From the IMG/VR virus record IMGVR_UViG_2778261031_000008: a stretch of DNA of 23,586 bases; one strand, written 5' to 3'. This document shows, piece by piece, positions 1 through 23,586 of the stretch. This DNA is from a virus. Its lineage: Duplodnaviria; Heunggongvirae; Uroviricota; Caudoviricetes. The translations under genes and the position numbers were made by a program. Position 1 is the stretch's first letter, and each line of letters begins with the position of its first letter. The notes below the pieces were generated by a model, which did not search any database, had not been told where the DNA came from, and saw only the letters and a list, made by a program, of their open reading frames with translations.

Positions 1-528
1 ATGACTATCAAATCAAATACGCCAGCGCACGACAAGGACTGCTGGCAAACGCCGCTTTGGCTTTTTGATGCACTGGATATTGAGTTTGGATTCTGGCTGG
101 ATTCGGCAGCGAGCGACAAAAATGCTCTGTGCGCTCACTGGTTAACTGAGGCCGACGACGCGCTAAATTCTGAGTGGGTAAGTCACGGTGCAATCTGGAA
201 TAACCCACCGTACAGCAATATCAGGCCGTGGGTGGAAAAAGCCGCTGAGCAGTGCATACAACAGCGACAGACGGTAGTGATGCTTGTGCCAGAGGATATG
301 TCTGTCGGATGGTTCAGCAATGCTCTGGAGAGTGTTGACGAAGTTCGTATTATCACTGATGGACGGATTAATTTTATCGAACCATCGACAGGGCTGGAGA
401 AGAAGGGAAACAGCAAAGGCTCAATGCTGCTGATTTGGCGACCGTTCATCAGTCCTCGACGGATGTTTACTACCGTATCCAAAGCGGCATTGATGGCGAT
501 CGGGCAGGGCGTCAGGAGGGCGGCATGA
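1..528 (+). CDS. Phage DNA N6-adenine methyltransferase (Dam-like); may be complete or 5'-truncated at the window edge
   Basis: 175 aa ORF starting with ATG at position 1; contains the NPPY motif typical of N6-adenine methyltransferases (WNNPPYS); sits in a nin-type region upstream of ninE. Confidence 0.8.
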
Positions 529-707
529 GACGACAGCGACGAAGCATCACCGACATAATCTGCGAAAACTGCAAATACCTTCCAACGAAACGCTCCAGAA
601 ATAAACCCAAGCCAATCCCAAAAGAATCTGACGTAAAAACCTTCAATTACACGGCTCACCTGTGGGATATCCGGTGGCTTAGAGAACGTGCGAGGAAAAC
701 AAGGTGA
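525..707 (+). CDS. ninE: NinE protein
   Basis: Translation from the internal ATG at 525 ([23 protein letters not shown]...) is near-identical to lambda NinE as I recall it; ATGA overlap with the stop of the upstream methylase; GGAGG-like RBS at 513-519. The 435 start in the ORF track is an upstream extension. Confidence 0.85.
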
Positions 708-874
708 TTGACCCAAATCGAAGTTACGAACAAGAAAGCGTCGAGCGAGCTTTAACGTGCGCTAACTGCGGTCAGAAGCTGCATGCGCTGGAAGTTCACG
801 TGTGTGAGCACTGCTGCGCAGAACTGATGAGCGATCCGAATAGCTCAATGTACGAGGAAGAAGATGATGAGTGA
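704..874 (+). CDS. ninF: NinF protein (small CxxC-containing protein)
   Basis: GTG start overlapping the ninE stop; translation [56 protein letters not shown] matches lambda NinF from memory; below the 60 aa ORF-track cutoff so hand-translated. Confidence 0.7.
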
Positions 875-1136
875 TTTCTCTGAGCTTATTTCCTTCAAAA
901 AAGACAGAGAAGAAATGCGGACTGAATCTGTCTATTACGTTCAACACCGGAATAAACGCTCGGTGCTTGATCAGGAGTTGGTTATTACCGGAGACCTGGC
1001 ATTCAGAACATATAAGGCCAGCATGGAAATGAAGGATTTCCCTAAATGTGGTTCTGAAAGAGAAGCCGCGTTAAAGCTGGCTGAGTGGATGCAGAGAATG
1101 GCTGCTGCAATTGAGAATTACTGGAGTGAACCATAA
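864..1136 (+). CDS. Hypothetical nin-region protein (90 aa)
   Basis: ORF with tandem ATG start preceded by GAGGAAG; translationally coupled (ATGA-type overlap) to the next gene; family not recognised. Confidence 0.5.
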   Translation: MMSDFSELISFKKDREEMRTESVYYVQHRNKRSVLDQELVITGDLAFRTYKASMEMKDFPKCGSEREAALKLAEWMQRMAAAIENYWSEP

Positions 1137-1426
1137 TGGCTAACCTACGCAAAGAAGCGCGCAACAGAGAATGCCAGGTACGTATTTACGGCGTATGCAA
1201 TGGCAATCCTGAAACTACAGTTCTGGCACATTACCGGATGGCTGGAATTTGCGGAACTGGAATGAAACCTGACGACCTGATCGGTGCATGGGCTTGTAGT
1301 GACTGCCACGCGGAGATCGACCGACGCACAATGATTCTCGACAACAAAGACGCCAGACTTTACCACCTCGAAGGCGTGATCAGGACGCAGGCGGTATTGC
1401 TGAAGGAGGGGAAGATTAAGCCATGA
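1136..1426 (+). CDS. DUF1364 family protein (YbcO-like, prophage nin region)
   Basis: 96 aa; sequence MANLRKEARNRECQVRIYGVCNGNPETTVLAH...CSDCHAEIDRR resembles E. coli DLP12 YbcO; overlaps neighbours by start/stop coupling. Confidence 0.75.
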   Translation: MANLRKEARNRECQVRIYGVCNGNPETTVLAHYRMAGICGTGMKPDDLIGAWACSDCHAEIDRRTMILDNKDARLYHLEGVIRTQAVLLKEGKIKP

Positions 1427-1785
1427 ACGAATATCAGTTTGTGCTTCCATACCCGCCGTCGGTGAATACCTACTGGCGAAGACGGGGAAGCCAATACTAC
1501 ATCAGCGATAAAGGCCAGAAATACCGAAAAGACGTTCAGCAAATCATCCGCCAACTCAAGTTAGACATTTTCACCAAATCACGACTCCGCATCAAAGTCA
1601 TCGCAGACGTTCCAGACTCCCGCCGCCGCGACCTCGATAACATCCTGAAGGGTTTACTCGACTCCCTTATCCACGCCGGATTTGCGGAAGACGACGAGCA
1701 ATTCGATGACATTCGCGTAATTCGTGGTGTGAAAGTACCAGGCGGACGGCTTGGAATAAAAATCACCGAACTGGAGAACGCATGA
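1423..1785 (+). CDS. rusA: Crossover junction endodeoxyribonuclease RusA (Holliday junction resolvase)
   Basis: 120 aa; PYPPSVNTYW...RRRDLDN...D motifs match RusA family; occupies the position of ninG/rap in lambda. Confidence 0.9.
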   Translation: MNEYQFVLPYPPSVNTYWRRRGSQYYISDKGQKYRKDVQQIIRQLKLDIFTKSRLRIKVIADVPDSRRRDLDNILKGLLDSLIHAGFAEDDEQFDDIRVIRGVKVPGGRLGIKITELENA

Positions 1786-1970
1786 ACGCCACAATTCAAA
1801 CGATACCAGAGCTTCTTATCCAGACACGAGGAAATCAGACCGAAGTGGCGAGGATGCTTTCCTGCGCAAGAGGAACAGTGCTCAAGTACAACCGAGACAG
1901 CAAAGGCGAGCGTCACGTAATAGTTAACGGCGTCCTGATGGTCAAACAGGGCAAGAGGGGAAGACGATGA
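1782..1970 (+). CDS. ninH: NinH protein (small HTH-like)
   Basis: 62 aa; IPELLIQTRGNQTEVARMLSCARGTVLKY...HVIVNGVLMV closely parallels lambda NinH. Confidence 0.8.
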   Translation: MNATIQTIPELLIQTRGNQTEVARMLSCARGTVLKYNRDSKGERHVIVNGVLMVKQGKRGRR

Positions 1971-2485
1971 GCATAAGAGAACTAAACCTCACCAAAGAAC
2001 AGCACGATTGGCTGAATGGCTGGCTTGAACTGTGGGGTGCATGGGTTTACTCAGGTCGCCTGGAAAAGCGCATGAGCAGCGTAATAGCGAAGTTCATGGA
2101 GAGCGTAGAGCCGGGAAGAGTTATGACAAGGCCAATGTGTAATGATGATGATGGAATGTTGATTTCTCAGGTCGTCGATTCCGTCATGTACATTGACAAG
2201 AAAGCCTTTGGCATCCTCCTCAGCTACTACGCTCATGGTTCATCTAAGCGAGCAATTGCATCCTACTATCACGCGACTGCAAAGCCACGCAAGATGTGTG
2301 GGCGTGGTGGTGAGGGATGGAGAAAACCTTCACTGGCAACCTGTAGAAATGAAATTGACGACATCCTGAAAGCGTCGTTATTTGTTTTGTACCAACCAAT
2401 GCAAAATGCTTTCAAAATGCGTAAACGTGTTGAGAAAGTTAAGCATGTTGCCGTTAAAAGCCTTGACATGCAATTAGCCATTTAG
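1967..2485 (+). CDS. Q: Late-gene antitermination protein Q (Q-family)
   Basis: 172 aa; position immediately upstream of the late promoter and lysis genes; WGAW...RPMCNDDDGMLI...LLSYY pattern resembles Q antiterminators of lambdoid phages. Confidence 0.75.
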   Translation: MSIRELNLTKEQHDWLNGWLELWGAWVYSGRLEKRMSSVIAKFMESVEPGRVMTRPMCNDDDGMLISQVVDSVMYIDKKAFGILLSYYAHGSSKRAIASYYHATAKPRKMCGRGGEGWRKPSLATCRNEIDDILKASLFVLYQPMQNAFKMRKRVEKVKHVAVKSLDMQLAI

Positions 2486-2492
2486 CCATAAT
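2463..2492 (+). promoter_or_regulatory. PR'-like late promoter (-35 TTGACA 2463-2468, -10 CATAAT 2487-2492, 18 bp spacer) overlapping the 3' end of Q
   Basis: Consensus -35 hexamer and near-consensus -10 read directly; location equivalent to lambda PR' and its qut site. Confidence 0.5.
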
Positions 2493-2502
2493 TAGAGGGT
2501 AA

Positions 2503-2544
2503 GCTGCCGTTAGTGACTCTTAAGTTGCAACGGTGGCTTTTTTT
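2503..2544 (+). terminator. Intrinsic terminator (tR'-like) about 40 nt downstream of the late promoter
   Basis: Stem 2503-2511 pairs with 2529-2537 (GC-rich, two G-U pairs), followed by a 7-T run at 2538-2544. Confidence 0.55.
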
Positions 2545-2548
2545 ATTT

Positions 2549-2623
2549 GGGTCAGTCGTATAAAGGTCATTACGGAAGGCTGTTAACCTTCTTATCGTGG
2601 TTCGAGTCCACGCTGTCCCGCCA
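2549..2623 (+). tRNA. tRNA-like gene, anticodon GUU (Asn) by hand fold; possibly degenerate
   Basis: 75 nt; anticodon stem GAAGG/CCTTC with loop CTGTTAA; T-arm CGTGG-TTCGAGT-CCACG; 3' CCA encoded; acceptor stem has one T-T mismatch and the D-arm is atypical. Confidence 0.45.
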
Positions 2624-2628
2624 AATAT

Positions 2629-2704
2629 GCTGGTTTAGCTCCAATGGTAGAGCGGTCGCCTTGTAAGCGAATGGGTAGCGGTTCAAGTCCGTTAACCAGC
2701 ACCA
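2629..2704 (+). tRNA. tRNA-Thr (anticodon UGU) by hand fold
   Basis: 76 nt; perfect 7 bp acceptor stem GCTGGTT/AACCAGC; D-arm TAGCTCCAATGGTAGAGC; anticodon loop CTTGTAA; T-arm AGCGG-TTCAAGT-CCGTT; discriminator A plus CCA. Confidence 0.7.
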
Positions 2705-2946
2705 TAACTGAGCCGTAGCCACTGGCTATCCTGAATTCATCAGTGATAGTTACGCTGCGGCATTCTACGCATGACCTTCGTGAAAGCGGGTGGCATGAGG
2801 TTGCCCTAACAACCTCCTGCCGTTTTGCCCGTGCATATCGGTCACGAACAAATCTGATTACTAAACACAGTAGCCTGGATTTGTTCTATCAGTAACCGAC
2901 CTTATTCCTAATTAAATAGAGCAAATCCCCTTATTGGGGGTAAGAC

Positions 2947-3270
2947 ATGAAGATGCCAGAAAAAAATGACCTGTTAGCCGCCATTCTCGCGGCAAAGGAA
3001 CAAGGCATCGGGGCAATCCTTGCGTTTGCAATGGCGTACCTTCGCGGCAGATATAATGGCGGTGCGTTTACAAAAACAGTAATCGACGCAACGATGTGCG
3101 CCATTATCGCCTGGTTCATTCGTGATCTTCTCGACCTCGCCGGACTAAGTAGCAATCTCGCTTATATAACGAGCGTGTTCATCGGCTACATCGGTACTGA
3201 CTCGATTGGTTCGCTTATCAAACGCTTCGCTGCTAAAAAAGCCGGAGTAGAAGATGGTGGGAATCAATAA
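2947..3270 (+). CDS. S: Holin S (lambda S107/S105 dual-start holin/antiholin)
   Basis: 107 aa, near-identical to lambda S ([53 protein letters not shown]...); Met1-Lys2-Met3 dual start with upstream CCCCTTATTGGGGG hairpin. Confidence 0.95.
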
Positions 3271-3730
3271 TCAACGTAAGGCGTTCCTCGATATGCTGGC
3301 GTGGTCAGAGGGAACTGATAACGGACGGCAGAAAACCAGAAATCATGGTTATGACGTCATTGTAGGGGGAGAGCTATTTACTGATTACTCCGATCACCCT
3401 CGCAAACTTGTCACGCTAAACCCAAAACTCAAATCAACAGCTGCCGGACGTTATCAGCTTCTTTCACGCTGGTGGGATGCTTACCGTAAGCAGCTTGCTC
3501 TGAAAGACTTCTCTCCGAAAAGCCAGGATGCTGTGGCATTGCAGCAGATTAAGGAGCGTGGCGCTTTACCGATGATTGATCGCGGTGATATTCGTCAGGC
3601 AATTGACCGTTGCAGCAATATCTGGGCTTCACTGCCGGGCGCTGGTTATGGTCAGTTCGAGCATAAGGCTGACAGCCTGATTGCAAAATTCAAAGAAGCA
3701 GGCGGAACGGTCAGAGAGATTGAGGTATGA
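3254..3730 (+). CDS. R: Endolysin R (lytic transglycosylase)
   Basis: 158 aa, near-identical to lambda R ([50 protein letters not shown]...). Confidence 0.95.
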
Positions 3731-4188
3731 GCAGAGTAACCGCGATTATTTCCGCTCTGGTTATCTGCATTATCGTTTGCTTGTCATGGGCTGTTAATCA
3801 TTACCGCGATAACGCCATTACCTACAAAGCCCAGCGCGACAAAAATGCCAGAGAACTGAAGCTGGCGAACTCGACAATTACTGACATGCAGATGCGTCAG
3901 CGTGATGTTGCTGCGCTCGATGCAAAATACACGAAGGAGTTAGCTGATGCGAAAGCTGAAAATGATGTTCTGCGTGATGATGTTGCCGCTGGTCGTCGTC
4001 GGTTGCACATCAAAGCAGTCTGTCAGTCAGTGCGTGAAGCCACCACCGCCTCCGGCGTGGATAATGCAGCCTCCCCCCGACTGGCAGACACCGCTGAACG
4101 GGATTATTTCACCCTCAGAGAGAGGCTGATCACTATGCAAAAACAACTGGAAGGAACCCAGAAGTATATTAATGAGCAGTGCAGATAG
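3727..4188 (+). CDS. Rz: Spanin Rz (inner-membrane i-spanin)
   Basis: 153 aa, near-identical to lambda Rz; N-terminal transmembrane segment. Confidence 0.95.
3947..4129 (+). CDS. Rz1: Spanin Rz1 (outer-membrane lipoprotein o-spanin), fully embedded in Rz in the +1 frame
   Basis: 60 aa; lipobox LVVVGC, proline-rich (PPPPP); matches lambda Rz1. Confidence 0.9.
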
Positions 4189-4219
4189 CGCTGCCCATAT
4201 CGATGGGCAACTCATGCAA

Positions 4220-4513
4220 TTATTGTGAGCAATACACCCGCGCTTCCAGCGGAGTATAAATGCCTAAAGTAATAAAACCGAGCAATCCATTTACGAATGT
4301 TTGCTGGGTTTCTGTTTTAACCACATTTTCTGCGCCGCCACAAATTTTGGCTGCATCAACAGTTTTCTCCTGTCCAATTCCCGAAACGAAGAAATGATGG
4401 GTGATGGTTTCCTTTGGTGTTACTGCTGTCGGTTTGTTTCCAACAGTAAACGTCTGTTGAGCACATCCTGTAATAAGCATTGCCAGAGCGGCAGAAAACA
4501 ACATTTTTTTCAT
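4220..4513 (-). CDS. bor: Bor lipoprotein (lysogenic-conversion serum-resistance protein)
   Basis: Start taken at the internal MKKM (ATG 4513) with an AGGAT RBS; 97 aa near-identical to lambda Bor (lipobox LITGC); the ORF-track 113 aa version is an upstream extension. Confidence 0.9.
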   Translation of the reverse strand: MKKMLFSAALAMLITGCAQQTFTVGNKPTAVTPKETITHHFFVSGIGQEKTVDAAKICGGAENVVKTETQQTFVNGLLGFITLGIYTPLEARVYCSQ

Positions 4514-4696
4514 CTTATTATCCTGCATTGTTAAAAACGGCAGAATCCTATGTGACAACAATTAAACGATAGTTAAATGGATTGATGAAAATTAAAACTA
4601 TATAGGTGTACGGTCAGACTATTGGAGGTAGTCAGGATTTGAATGTCAGTCTGTTGTCGGCATTCTGGCAATGCAATTTGGATAAAGCGGGGATTA

Positions 4697-4816
4697 AAAA
4701 GATAGAGGCGAGCCGGTCAGGTAGAAATGAATCAGGCTCAAAGTGAAGCGGAAAAGGTCTGTGGTACAAGCTGATGCAGCCATAATTACAGCCTGATGAT
4801 TTGTGGAATGAAACAT
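4697..4816 (-). CDS. Candidate small ORF (39 aa), hypothetical
   Basis: ATG at 4816 preceded by a consensus AAGGAGG Shine-Dalgarno at optimal spacing; translation MFHSTNHQAVIMAASACTTDLFRFTLSLIHFYLTGSPLSF; no recognisable family; below the ORF-track cutoff. Confidence 0.25.
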
Positions 4817-4896
4817 GTTGAACCTCCTTAATTGATGTTATTCGAGTGATGAAGGCATTCTGTCCTTCTATAGTGTCCAGTAAATCAAACAGGAAA

Positions 4897-4918
4897 CTTG
4901 TCCAACGTGTTGGACAAG
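4897..4918. repeat. Perfect 22 bp palindrome CTTGTCCAAC-GT-GTTGGACAAG, candidate protein-binding site
   Basis: 10 bp arms are exact reverse complements with a 2 bp spacer; read directly from the sequence. Confidence 0.6.
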
Positions 4919-5038
4919 CCTCTCCATTAGTGAGTTGTATTGATCACAACTCTACAAAGAATTCATTACTGGGTAGATGAAAATAGTTTCACGATGAATG
5001 GAGGAGGCTATGTCGGTGGCTTCTTCATTGGAGTACAT

Positions 5039-5389
5039 ATGCCATCACGAATCCCAAAAGCCTGCCGTGTTCGTGGCTGCCGCCATACCACCACAGACCC
5101 GTCAGGCTATTGTGAAAGCCACAAAAGCGAAGGCTGGAAGCAATACAAACCAGGCCTGTCACGTCATCAGCGCGGTTACGGTTCGAAGTGGGATACCATC
5201 CGTGAACGTGTGCTGAAGCGTGACAAAGGACTGTGTCAGTTATGTCTGCGTGCCGGTGTGGTGCGTGAGGCGAAAACCGTTGACCACATTATCCCTAAGG
5301 CGCATGGCGGCACTGACGCTGACAGTAATCTGCAGAGCCTGTGCTGGCCATGTCATAAGGCGAAGACGGCCCGTGAACGGCTAAAGTGA
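5039..5389 (+). CDS. HNH endonuclease (terminase-associated, HK97-type packaging accessory)
   Basis: Cys pairs CRVRGC and CQLC, DHIIPKAHGG, NLQSLCWPCH HNH motif; start chosen at ATG 5039 with GGAG RBS 5 nt upstream (ORF-track start 4940 is a TTG; ATG 4994 is an alternative). Confidence 0.8.
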   Translation: MPSRIPKACRVRGCRHTTTDPSGYCESHKSEGWKQYKPGLSRHQRGYGSKWDTIRERVLKRDKGLCQLCLRAGVVREAKTVDHIIPKAHGGTDADSNLQSLCWPCHKAKTARERLK

Positions 5390-5514: not shown

Positions 5515-6009
5515 ATGGCTGGAACGGCGGGGCGTTCCGGGCGTCGCCCCAAGCCAACGGCGCGCAAGGCGCTGGCCGGAAACCCCGGCAAGCGAGCCCT
5601 GAATAAAGATGAACCTGTTTTTACGCCCATCAAAGGTGTTGAGCCACCGGAGTGGTTCGCTGAAGAAGATCTCCCTCTCGCCACGATCATGTGGCAACTG
5701 ACAACCAAAGAACTCTGCGGTCAGGGCCTGCTGTGCGTGACTGACCTGGCGGTACTTGAGCGGTGGTGTGTGGCCTATGAGTTCTGGCGACGTGCCGTGA
5801 AAAATATTGCCAGACAGGGTAACACCATCACCGGTGCAATGGGTGGCATGGTCAAAAATCCGGAGCTGACCGCCAAAAAAGAACAGGAGTCCGAGATGAG
5901 CAGCACGGGGGCAATGCTCGGACTCGACCCCAGCAGCCGCCAGCGTCTGATTGGCCTGGCGGGGAAGAAGAAAGCCACTAACCCGTTTCTGAAAATCATC
6001 GAATCATGA
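5515..6009 (+). CDS. Terminase small subunit (P27 family)
   Basis: N-terminus [30 protein letters not shown] typical of P27-family TerS; ATG 5515 with GGAG RBS (ORF-track start 5506 is a GTG); ATGA coupling to the large subunit. Confidence 0.85.
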
Positions 6010-20820: not shown

Positions 20821-21865
20821 ATTTCAGCGCCCGACGCTGGCAGAAAATATCAGTATGCTCCGTAACGATTTATTCGCCAGGCTGGACGTCAGCGACACGC
20901 TCCGGCGCATGGATGAAGACGTGCGGGCAAAGGTGTATGCGGCGGCGCTGCATACGGTTTACGGGTACATCGATTATCTGGCAATGAATATGCTGCCTGA
21001 CCTGTGCGATGAGTCCTGGCTGGCGCGACATGCTGCGATGAAACGGTGTCCGCGCAAGGGGGCCACGGCTGCCAGCGGGTATATGTGCTGGGAAGGTGTC
21101 AGCGATGGCCTGAAGGTGACCGCCGGGAGTGTTATTCAGCGCGATGACCTGGTTCAGTACACGGCAACTGCCGATGCAACCAGCTCCGGTGGTGTCCTGC
21201 GCGTGCCGATCGCCTGCTCAAGTGCAGGTGCGGTCGGTAACGCTGACGACGGTACGGCATTAATCCTGGTCACGCCGGTGAATGGTCTGCCGTCTTCCGG
21301 TGTGGCTGACACCCTTACAGGCGGATTTGATACTGAAGAGCTGGAAACGTGGCGCGCCCGCGTCATTGAGCGGTATTACTGGACGCCGCAGGGCGGGGCT
21401 GACGGGGACTATGTCGTCTGGGCTAAAGAAGTGCCCGGCATTACCCGCGCATGGACATACCGTCACTGGATGGGAACGGGGACTGTCGGTGTGATGATTG
21501 CCGGCAGTGACCTGATTAATCCCATTCCGGAAGAATCAACGGAAACGGCGGCAAGACAACACATTGAGCCACTGGCCCCGGTGGCAGGCTCTGATTTGTA
21601 TGTGTTCAGGCCGGTGGCGCATACGGTGGATTTTCATATCCGCGTGACGCCGGACACACCGGAAATACGAGCCGCCATCACTGCTGAGTTGCGTTCGTTC
21701 CTGCTGCGTGATGGTTATCCGCAGGGAGAACTGAAGGTGTCGCGTATCAGTGAAGCGATTTCCGGTGCGAACGGGGAATACAGCCATCAATTGCTTGCAC
21801 CGGCGGACAATATCTCCATTGCAAAAAATGAACTGGCGGTTCTGGGGACGATTTCATGGACGTGA
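20807..21865 (+). CDS. Baseplate J-like protein (Mu gp47-like)
   Basis: 352 aa; synteny and size typical of baseplate wedge J proteins. Confidence 0.8.
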
Positions 21866-22440
21866 CAAACGATGATTACATCTGTCTGTTGTCGGCACTG
21901 CTGCCGCCCGGTCCGGCGTGGTCAGCCAGCGATCCGGCGATTGCCGGTGCGGCACCGTCATTAACTCGTGTTCATCAGCGTGCGGATGCCCTGATGCGGG
22001 AGCTGGATCCGCGCACCACCACCGAACTGATAAATCGCTGGGAGCGTCTGTGCGGCCTGCCGGATGAATGTATTCCCGCAGGGACACAGACCCTTCGCCA
22101 GCGTCAGCAACGACTGGATGCGAAGGTTAACCTGGCGGGCGGCATCAATGAGGATTTTTACCTTGCACAGCTTGCTGCCCTGGGCAGACCAGACGCTACC
22201 ATCACGCGATACGACAAAAGCACGTTCACCTGCTCATCGGCCTGTACTGACGCGGTGAATGCGCCGGAATGGCGGTATTACTGGCAGGTCAACATGCCAG
22301 CCGCCACCAACACCACCTGGATGACATGTGGCGATCCCTGTGATTCCGCACTGCGTATCTGGGGTGACACCGTTGTCGAGTGTGTGCTTAACAAACTCTG
22401 CCCGTCGCATACCTACGTAATTTTTAAATATCCGGAGTAA
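21856..22440 (+). CDS. Tail protein (Mu gp48 / gpI-like, DUF2313-type)
   Basis: 194 aa; immediately upstream of the tail fibre gene. Confidence 0.7.
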
Positions 22441-22443
22441 TCC

Positions 22444-23169
22444 ATGCATCGTATAGACACGAAAACCGCGCAGAAGGATAAGTTCGGCGCGGGTAAGAAC
22501 GGTTTTACCCGTGGTAACCCCCAGACTGGCACTCCTGCCACCGATCTGGATGATGACTACTTTGACATGTTGCAGGAAGAACTCTGCAGCGTGGTGGAGG
22601 CATCCGGTGCCAGCCTGGAGAAAGGGCGGCATGACCAGCTGCTTACCGCACTTCGTGCGCTGCTGTTAAGCCGCAAGAATCCGTTTGGCGATATCAAATC
22701 GGATGGTACTGTGCAAACGGCTCTCGGAAATCTTGGTTTGGGAACAGCAGCAACCAAAAATGTTGGAACCGGATCTGGTCAAATCCCTGACATGTCCAGC
22801 TTTGGTATGTCGCGAAACGGACAAACTATCTGGGATATTCTCCCAAATGGTATGATTCGACAGGCTGGCATTGTGACACTGACACCAGTTGGTAACTTCA
22901 ACGCGCAGGTGCTTGGTGGGGTGACGTACTACACCCATTACTACAGGGTTAATTTCCCCAGAGAATTCCCAAACGCACAATTAGCAACGCTGGCAACACT
23001 AGCGAGTTACGGCTTTTCGGGCCAGTCATCAATGGCTGGAAGATCACTGGCAACGGATCGCGATACTGATTCTGGCACTGACGTATCAAGAACGCGATTC
23101 ACTGTGGCGTATACGACACCCTATATTGGCGAAATACCGACTTTGCACTTTGAAGCAATAGGATACTAA
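22444..23169 (+). CDS. Tail fibre protein with conserved N-terminal anchor and AT-rich, probably exchangeable C-terminal receptor-binding part
   Basis: 241 aa; N-terminus [40 protein letters not shown] typical of phage tail fibres; GGAG RBS; composition becomes AT-richer from about 22700 onward. Confidence 0.8.
22722..22746. other. Candidate invertase crossover site (gix/hix/pix-like core AAATC-TT-GGTTT) at the constant/variable junction of the tail fibre
   Basis: CTCTCGGAAATCTTGGTTTGGGAACA resembles Gin/Hin-family sites (AAACC-NN-GGTTT core) as I recall them, with mismatches; coincides with the compositional break. Confidence 0.3.
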
Positions 23170-23171
23170 AT

Positions 23172-23405
23172 ATGGAAAATATGTATTTCAGCCCAACGAC
23201 CGTTGGTTTTTATGTTTCTGAACAAGAGCGACCTGATGATGCAGTTGAAGTCTCGCCAGAGGTGGAGGCATTTTTGAGGGAGTGTGTTATCTGGGGAGCG
23301 GATACATTTAACGTAGAGCGAGATGCAGCAACGGTGACATATCCAACAGAACTGCTTGAATATGTCACCACCTACAACGCCCCCGTTAAATATCCTGCGG
23401 ATTGA
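23172..23405 (+). CDS. Short tail fibre assembly (Tfa)-like protein, N-terminal-type domain only
   Basis: 77 aa; YFS...GFY...DAVEVSPE pattern like Tfa N-termini; lacks the conserved C-terminal WKKYRVLL motif; 3' end overlaps the convergent minus-strand Tfa fragment. Confidence 0.5.
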   Translation: MENMYFSPTTVGFYVSEQERPDDAVEVSPEVEAFLRECVIWGADTFNVERDAATVTYPTELLEYVTTYNAPVKYPAD

Positions 23406-23586
23406 CAGGCCATACGGGTTTTGCTGTATCAACGCGCATCAGCAGGACCCGGTATTTTTTCCATTCAGATAACGCGTCGGTTTCCTCATCCGTCGCGATA
23501 CCGGCATCAACCGCATCCTGTCGCCAGGCGATTTCAGAGTCCGCTTGAGCCTTTAAGCTTAATTTCCTGTCTTCTGCAATAGCCAT
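23386..23586 (-). CDS. Tail fibre assembly protein, C-terminal fragment (5' end lies beyond the window)
   Basis: C-terminal motif [20 protein letters not shown] matches the conserved Tfa C-terminus (lambda Tfa ...[23 protein letters not shown]); the ATG at the window edge is probably not the true start. Confidence 0.75.
   Translation of the reverse strand: [66 protein letters not shown]

Follow-up and report, generated by a model that had tools for sequence, protein, structure and literature searches.

The tail fibre gene at the end of the DNA analysed here, a stretch of 23,586 nucleotides from IMG/VR record IMGVR_UViG_2778261031_000008 (referred to below as the window), very probably belongs to a locked fossil of an invertible segment of the e14 P type, in which an orphan pixL site has been left at the seam between the constant part of the fibre and its receptor-binding cassette. 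The site is orthologous to the crossover site of e14, it coincides with a mosaic boundary, the cassette that follows it is shared with other elements in both orientations, and both a partner site and an invertase gene are absent in cis.

The prophage and its tail fibre region

There was no mismatch between the window and NCBI contig NMJI01000024.1 (assembly GCA_002511505.1) over 11,143 overlapping bases. The host flank, with torT-torR-torC about 0.6 kb beyond the window end, is 100% identical to E. coli. The window corresponds to the late region of a prophage of E. coli that belongs to the e14/SfV type and combines lambdoid regulation and lysis genes with an HK97-like head and a Mu-like contractile tail. 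In the order of the window, the genes for Dam, RusA, the antiterminator Q, the Rz lysis protein and an HNH endonuclease come first; they are followed by those for the small and large terminase subunits, the portal protein and an HK97-type capsid protein and, after the head, by Mu-like tail and baseplate genes (sheath, tube, tape measure, DNA circularisation protein and gp44-, gp45-, gp46-, gp47- and gp48-like proteins). The HNH endonuclease gene lies directly 5′ of the gene for the small terminase subunit, at 4940–5389; this neighbourhood is the usual layout in HK97-like cos phages. Over the baseplate and fibre genes, identity is 96% with SfV as well as with the cryptic prophage e14.

The tail fibre gene, the orthologue of e14 stfP, occupies positions 22444–23169 of the plus strand, an ORF of 241 codons in which a constant N-terminal part continues, without change of frame, into a single variable cassette for receptor binding. 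The constant part, taken to include the left half of the crossover site, extends over 22444–22732 on the plus strand (GC 0.55, third-position GC 0.61). Residues 133–241 (22840–23166, plus strand) belong to the Gp53-like C-terminal domain family, Pfam PF21882, with a score of 29.9 bits against a cut-off of 24.9, and presumably form the receptor-binding tip of the fibre. Next comes a 77-codon ORF (23172–23405, plus strand), which has the position of a tail fibre assembly (chaperone) gene and travels with the cassette. Finally, the C-terminal 66 codons of a tfa′ gene (23386–23586, Pfam Caudo_TAP) lie in reverse orientation on the minus strand and run to the end of the window.

A pix-type crossover site within the fibre gene

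The motif CTCTCGGAAATCTTGGTTTGGGAACA occurs only once in the window, at 22721–22746, inside the tail fibre ORF. Its minus-strand sequence is TGTTCCCAAACC AA GATTTCCGAGAG, the core dinucleotide occupying 22733–22734, and it keeps the AA/TT core of the Din-family format, i.e. two 12-bp half-sites around a 2-bp core. With G7, T11, A24 and C25, it departs in four bases from canonical pixL, published as TTCTCCCAAACCAAGGTTTTCGAGAG, i.e. TTCTCCCAAACC AA GGTTTTCGAGAG, in a table of Din-family sites that gives pixR as TTCTCCCAAACC AA CGTTTATGAAAA (PMC3241671, Table 3). Among 13 published Din-family sites, pixL was the best match with 22 of 26 bases, as compared with 18/26 for pixR and 14–17/26 for hix, gix, cix, mix and bix. 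An imperfect site of the Gin/Hin/Cin/Pin type had been proposed at this junction by an earlier note on this DNA, made from the letters alone, and the alignment with the known sites confirms it; the term gix-like used there is right in so far as this is a Din-family crossover site, but the site is specifically a pix site. None of 30 shuffles contained a match at four or fewer mismatches to the published sites. The dyad symmetry of the half-sites, counted by eye, is 6/12 in the window site versus 9/12 in canonical pixL.

The canonical pixL of K-12 e14, CTCTCGAAAACC TT GGTTTGGGAGAA on the plus strand, is at the identical position and at the same codon positions in stfP, and the K-12 pixR is located 80 nt upstream of pinE. 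Inversion of the e14 segment has been shown experimentally (PMC4272514; PMC12529663). As judged from its sequence and location, the window motif is a mutated pixL, the positional orthologue by descent of the e14 site. No second 26-mer with seven or fewer mismatches to any of the 13 published sites was detected on either strand of the window or of a 577-nt extension of it, and a scan for half-sites gave only chance-level matches elsewhere.

The exact variant 26-mer had no match in IMG/VR, and a 21-mer of the variant had a single match in the JGI metagenomes, in the unrelated AT-rich contig Ga0307488_10018603 (2301–2321 of locus L131). The 21-mer is located there inside a 1055-codon ORF and encodes GGNLGLGT; we rejected this match as evidence of an invertase, the contig being unrelated and the encoded peptide the same. 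Since an identical 21-mer encodes GGNLGLGT in that contig, tail fibre-like proteins with no known link to an invertase may repeatedly contain the NLGLG peptide and, with it, a pix-like string of DNA. We also rejected the T at position 11 of the half-site as proof of inactivation, because a T beside the core-proximal base is found as well in the right half-site (CAATTG...) of apparently active sites of the P1/P2 type.

The site coincides with a mosaic boundary

Residues 1–97 of the fibre are identical to K-12 StfP at 96 of 97 positions, PHROG tail fibre families match residues 1–101, and at the DNA level identity to e14 ymfQ-stfP is 96% up to 22753. A megablast search of 5,426 complete E. coli genomes found the left part of the query in about 2,000 of them; the constant part is common to more than 1,900 E. 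coli genomes and to phages SfI, SfII, SfIV and SfV. Only 9 of the 5,426 genomes had a match over at least 80% of the stretch from ymfQ to tfa′ (21856–23586). We fetched 114 loci encoding the constant part, of which 74 were unique and could be aligned in register to the window. On average they agree with the window at about 0.9 of positions as far as 22740, at 0.56 over 22741–22750 and, beyond that, at about 0.3, the random level. When the first 400 nt after the site were clustered at 80% identity, at least 49 cassette clusters were obtained. The window's own cassette follows the constant part in none of the 114 loci fetched in this way; it was found by searching with the cassette alone.

The exchange of the receptor-binding part suggested by the earlier note would have sat badly with homologous fibres running collinearly across this point in phages devoid of an invertase. 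The comparison with homologues gave the opposite picture: similarity collapses within 10 bp of the right edge of the site, and SfI, SfII, SfIV and SfV are non-collinear with the window, their similarity to it, like that of e14, stopping at 22743–22753.

The same note had pointed to an AT-richer stretch from about 22700 to the end of the 77-codon ORF. The computed profile agrees and is not flat: GC is 0.549 at 22444–22720 and 0.473 at 22721–23405, while the baseplate genes upstream of the fibre gene have 0.57–0.59 per kb, and the maximum-likelihood change point within 21856–23405 is at 22674 (log-likelihood ratio 7.9). The drop is real but modest, since about 7% of equal-sized stretches elsewhere in the window, mostly in its first 5 kb, are equally low. 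GC is 0.43–0.50 per kb in window 1–5000, i.e. in the regulatory and lysis region with Dam, RusA, Q and Rz, versus 0.51–0.59 in the structural genes, so that low GC in the window is not confined to the fibre cassette. In the family as a whole the cassettes have a mean GC of 0.49 versus 0.55 for the constant part, so that a GC step at the site is typical. Given its small size, the drop might be put down to the amino acids that make up the C-terminal domain, with no foreign origin implied. However, third-codon-position GC falls as well, from 0.61 in the constant part to 0.44 in the variable part and 0.40 in the 77-codon ORF, which argues against an effect of amino-acid composition; moreover, the drop coincides with the collapse of similarity to the 74 related loci, and the cassette is common to unrelated phage backbones. 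A purely compositional explanation thus seems to us extremely improbable, and the lower GC of the cassette would reflect its separate history.

The boundary has a fine structure. The window and its sister prophage in E. coli E89 are 93–99% identical on either side of the seam. Identity falls to 85% within the site and to 67% over the 49 nt that follow it (22747–22795, plus strand), so that the cassette begins with a patch of local divergence. A search for the donor of this patch in the 5,426 complete E. coli genomes, in the phage collection and in IMG/VR gave no match above 80%. The inner half-site of the E89 cassette is of the e14 type (GGTTT), and the same cassette has CAATT on P1, P2 and lambdoid backbones. 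On the strength of these two kinds of inner half-site and of the 49-nt patch, at least some of the exchanges fell to the right of the core; homologous recombination within the conserved linker, rather than the invertase, was probably responsible for them, in line with the known origin of stf mosaics by relaxed homologous recombination (PMC3945230).

A cassette common to several phage backbones

Downstream of the patch, positions 22796–23169 are 90–94% identical to the C-terminal parts of tail fibres in P1-like, P2-like and lambdoid elements. The cassette, searched for with positions 22760–23405, is present in 148 of the 5,426 E. coli genomes, at 93–95% identity and mostly on other backbones. 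It is fused to gpS in P1-like phage-plasmids and in phage phi456, and to a gpH-like fibre in P2-like prophages; it is found also in the lambdoid phage phi458. In other P1-like and P2-like elements it is in the silent orientation and adjoins a recombinase gene. Wherever the backbone is that of the window, the cassette was seen in the fused orientation only.

When the junctions are lined up, the left half-site is TTCTCGCATACC if the cassette is fused and TTTTCATAAACG or TTTTCTTAGACG if it lies beside an invertase; the cassette keeps its TT core and its right half-site, CAATTGGGAGAA, in either case. The left half-site thus varies with the context and the right one travels with the cassette, as predicted by exchange at the TT core. 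Two P2-like prophages (L125 and L126) share a site-bounded segment of 1551 bp that is 99.4% identical, versus 66–80% for the flanks, which are inverted. To judge by these alignments, the cassette circulates among P1-like, P2-like, lambdoid and e14-like phages and is always bounded by such sites. The horizontally exchanged receptor-binding cassette postulated in the earlier note is thus borne out by the occurrence of one cassette on four phage backbones and by the collapse of similarity at the site.

All copies of the cassette carry the 77-codon ORF at 98–99% identity, and annotations invariably give its product as a hypothetical protein. It had been called Tfa-like, a description that suits its gene position and a weak N-terminal motif but does not extend to a family-level match. 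PHROG 188 (tail fibre assembly) matches its residues 1–31 only (E = 8e-5), BLASTP against TfaP gives a weak hit (E = 0.035), and no Pfam match was obtained, the test of membership in Caudo_TAP (PF02413) being negative. We therefore could not place it in the Tfa family.

In the P1-like plasmid pKBN10P04869B (5127–5396 of locus L123) and in phi456 (5630–5940 of locus L007), the cassette fused to gpS is followed by a tfa′ pseudogene with internal stops, and the annotation shows no cin gene ahead of the holin/lyd genes. On this other backbone, the same cassette seems to have become locked independently.

Intact relatives and loss of the invertase

An intact arrangement is provided by E. coli HeN100, where the constant part, the site, a cassette with tfa, a reversed tfa′, a gp53-like C-terminus, a second site and pinE follow one another in this order. 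All of the 23 related loci with a full-length invertase (at most 5 kb away) have the canonical left site, CTCTCGAAAACC TT GGTTT..., and each also has a partner in inverted orientation, TTCTCCCAAACC AA..., about 80 nt ahead of the start codon (ATG) of the invertase. The variant site of the window was found only in loci without an invertase. Variants of the left half are seen in none of the 23 loci with a full-length invertase versus 12 of 50, a contrast that we do not use as a statistical association because the variants probably represent few lineages.

Many related prophages (IMG/VR loci L043–L122) keep only fragments of pin, e.g. residues 1–44, 1–49, 1–67 or 52–184, which indicates repeated and independent decay of the invertase in this phage family. 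With so many relatives having a truncated pin or none, loss of the invertase is common in the family.

A deletion that would have locked the segment

The reverse tfa′ remnant matches positions 67–131 of the 131 of the Caudo_TAP profile (E = 1.5e-18), and in the E89 sister prophage tfa′ is annotated as ‘incomplete, missing N-terminus’. About 10–20 nt past the window end, the remnant gives way to DNA whose normal place is behind the invertase gene: positions 11151–11259 of locus L003 are 99% identical to a stretch of an intact relative (L128) that begins 28 nt beyond the stop codon of the invertase. The remnant being fused to post-pin DNA, a full inverted cassette and pin must once have been present. 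At the junction (L003 11140–11260, equivalent to 23583–23703 in window numbering), both parental sequences share TCTnnnGTTGGA, which points to a microhomology event as the putative origin of the deletion. We rejected a site-specific event, given this microhomology and a junction free of any pix-like sequence.

The same junction is found in E. coli E89, where the prophage is located beside ybhB-bioA and not torT. Since the junction is identical at two chromosomal sites, the deletion predates both integrations and the locked phage stayed mobile. Similarity between the two prophages stops about 450 nt past the window end, where different host flanks begin. Just before that point, L003 11440–11600 (about 23880–24040 in window numbering) appears to resemble an arm of the lambda attP (...CTGTTACAGGTCACTAATACCATCTAAGTAGTTGATTCATAGTGACTG...); because of this location, the stretch is probably the attR region of the prophage.

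No gene for a serine invertase, which would also bring the recombinational enhancer with it, was found between the fibre gene and host torT, either by tblastn or among the called genes, and no partner site in inverted orientation is present on the same molecule in the window and its 577-nt extension. Examined as a potential invertible segment, the region shows one complete cassette and the 66-codon reverse tfa′ remnant in place of two cassettes.

The following course of events would account for this arrangement. In the ancestor, the constant part would have ended at a Pin-type site and continued into the gp53-like C-terminus and its small companion ORF; in the intact form, these would have been followed by a second cassette in reverse orientation, then by the partner site and the gene for the invertase. 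By recombining the two sites, the enzyme would have changed which C-terminus was fused to the constant part. A deletion between the short similar sequences TCTnnnGTTGGA would then have taken the N-terminal half of tfa′, the second fibre C-terminus, the partner site and pin. As a result of such a deletion, one cassette would be permanently fused and the left site left as an orphan; with the partner site, the second cassette and the invertase gone, inversion in cis would no longer be possible. We infer that this prophage descends from an invertible ancestor and that its orphan site no longer functions.

Two other explanations deserve consideration. One concerns the present state of the site, which could still be active if Pin-family invertases (of the PinE, PinQ or PinR type) from other prophages of the same chromosome acted on it in trans and recombined it with pix sites located elsewhere. 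Inversion of the one e14 segment by several Pin paralogues has been reported (PMC12529663), the window site has retained the core dinucleotide and 22 of 26 bases, and the E. coli genomes examined often hold two to four places that match the region. If true, trans activity could lead to capture of cassettes or to large chromosomal inversions. Yet there is no partner site within 24 kb, the variant site is confined to loci devoid of an invertase, and the same arrangement is found in all four contigs with an identical fibre protein and in the nine E. coli genomes with the whole region. Trans activity would also be at odds with the requirements of inversion of the Hin/Gin type, which is efficient only at short range, with two sites and an enhancer on one supercoiled molecule. 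We thus consider it unlikely that the site is still in use. No more probable, in our view, is a related and more speculative idea, in which the altered pix site would serve as a landing pad for the invertases of other prophages acting in trans, or else its substitutions would have been selected to shield the fibre gene from these invertases. Were the site a landing pad, a ‘locked’ phage could capture new receptor-binding cassettes or drive chromosomal inversions between prophages.

The other explanation concerns the origin of the motif, which could be nothing but a conserved coding linker (ALxNLGLG), the cassette having been imported by homologous or illegitimate recombination into a lineage that never was invertible. 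The unrelated metagenomic contig with the identical 21-mer, the junction between e14-type and P1/P2-type cassettes to the right of the core, and the stf mosaics made by relaxed homologous recombination (PMC3945230) would all fit such a history. However, it would leave unexplained why the reverse tfa′ remnant is joined to DNA whose usual place is immediately after the invertase gene, and why the site has the same position and almost the same sequence as one at which inversion has been obtained experimentally. That the lineage never was invertible therefore appears very unlikely, and a locked e14-type segment is the reading that we retain.

Comparison with known systems

The closest counterpart is the P segment of e14 (stfP/tfaP, tfaE/stfE, pinE, pixL/pixR). 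In both cases a Mu gp47-like gene and ymfQ precede the fibre gene, the constant part is the same at 96 of 97 residues, the site agrees in position, core and 22 of 26 bases, and a reverse tfa′ is found after the cassette. In contrast to e14, the window lacks a second cassette, pixR and pinE, and its site has four substitutions; the cassette itself differs, being gp53-like with the 77-codon ORF in place of TfaP, and the prophage has a complete late region with head and tail genes. The G segment of Mu with Gin, the C segment of P1 with Cin and the Min system of p15B resemble the window in having a constant N-terminus, a 26-bp site with a 2-bp core at the junction and alternative cassettes made of a C-terminus and a chaperone; P1-like C segments even carry the window's cassette, in both ON and OFF orientation. 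However, gix, cix and hix match the window site at 14–17 of 26 bases only, the backbone of the window is e14/SfV-like and not that of Mu or P1, and the window has no invertase. Phages SfV, SfI, SfII and SfIV have Mu-like baseplate genes and a constant part that is 96% identical up to 22743–22753, but another cassette follows the site. In SfV there is likewise a single fixed cassette, with no invertase annotated downstream of the fibre genes; unlike in the window, no reverse tfa′ remnant is annotated in SfV, the one phage of this group inspected in this respect, and gtr genes follow the fibre genes.

Significance

Inversion by Din-family enzymes and exchange of fibre tips are well-known phenomena (Haggård-Ljungquist et al. 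1992, Sandmeier et al. 1992 and Sandmeier 1994, as cited in PMC3945230; Plasterk and van de Putte 1985, as cited in PMC4272514). The main value of the present analysis is for annotation: it explains the GC break, marks the receptor-binding module of the prophage and identifies the 66-codon ‘tail fibre assembly’ ORF at the window end as a deletion remnant. The site is also a convenient predicted splice point for host-range engineering. For the biology of these phages, the case is a worked example of how Din-family sites act as seams for the exchange of fibre tips between unrelated phages, one cassette being found on four backbones, and it illustrates that invertible fibre segments are often lost, many relatives having a truncated pin or none.
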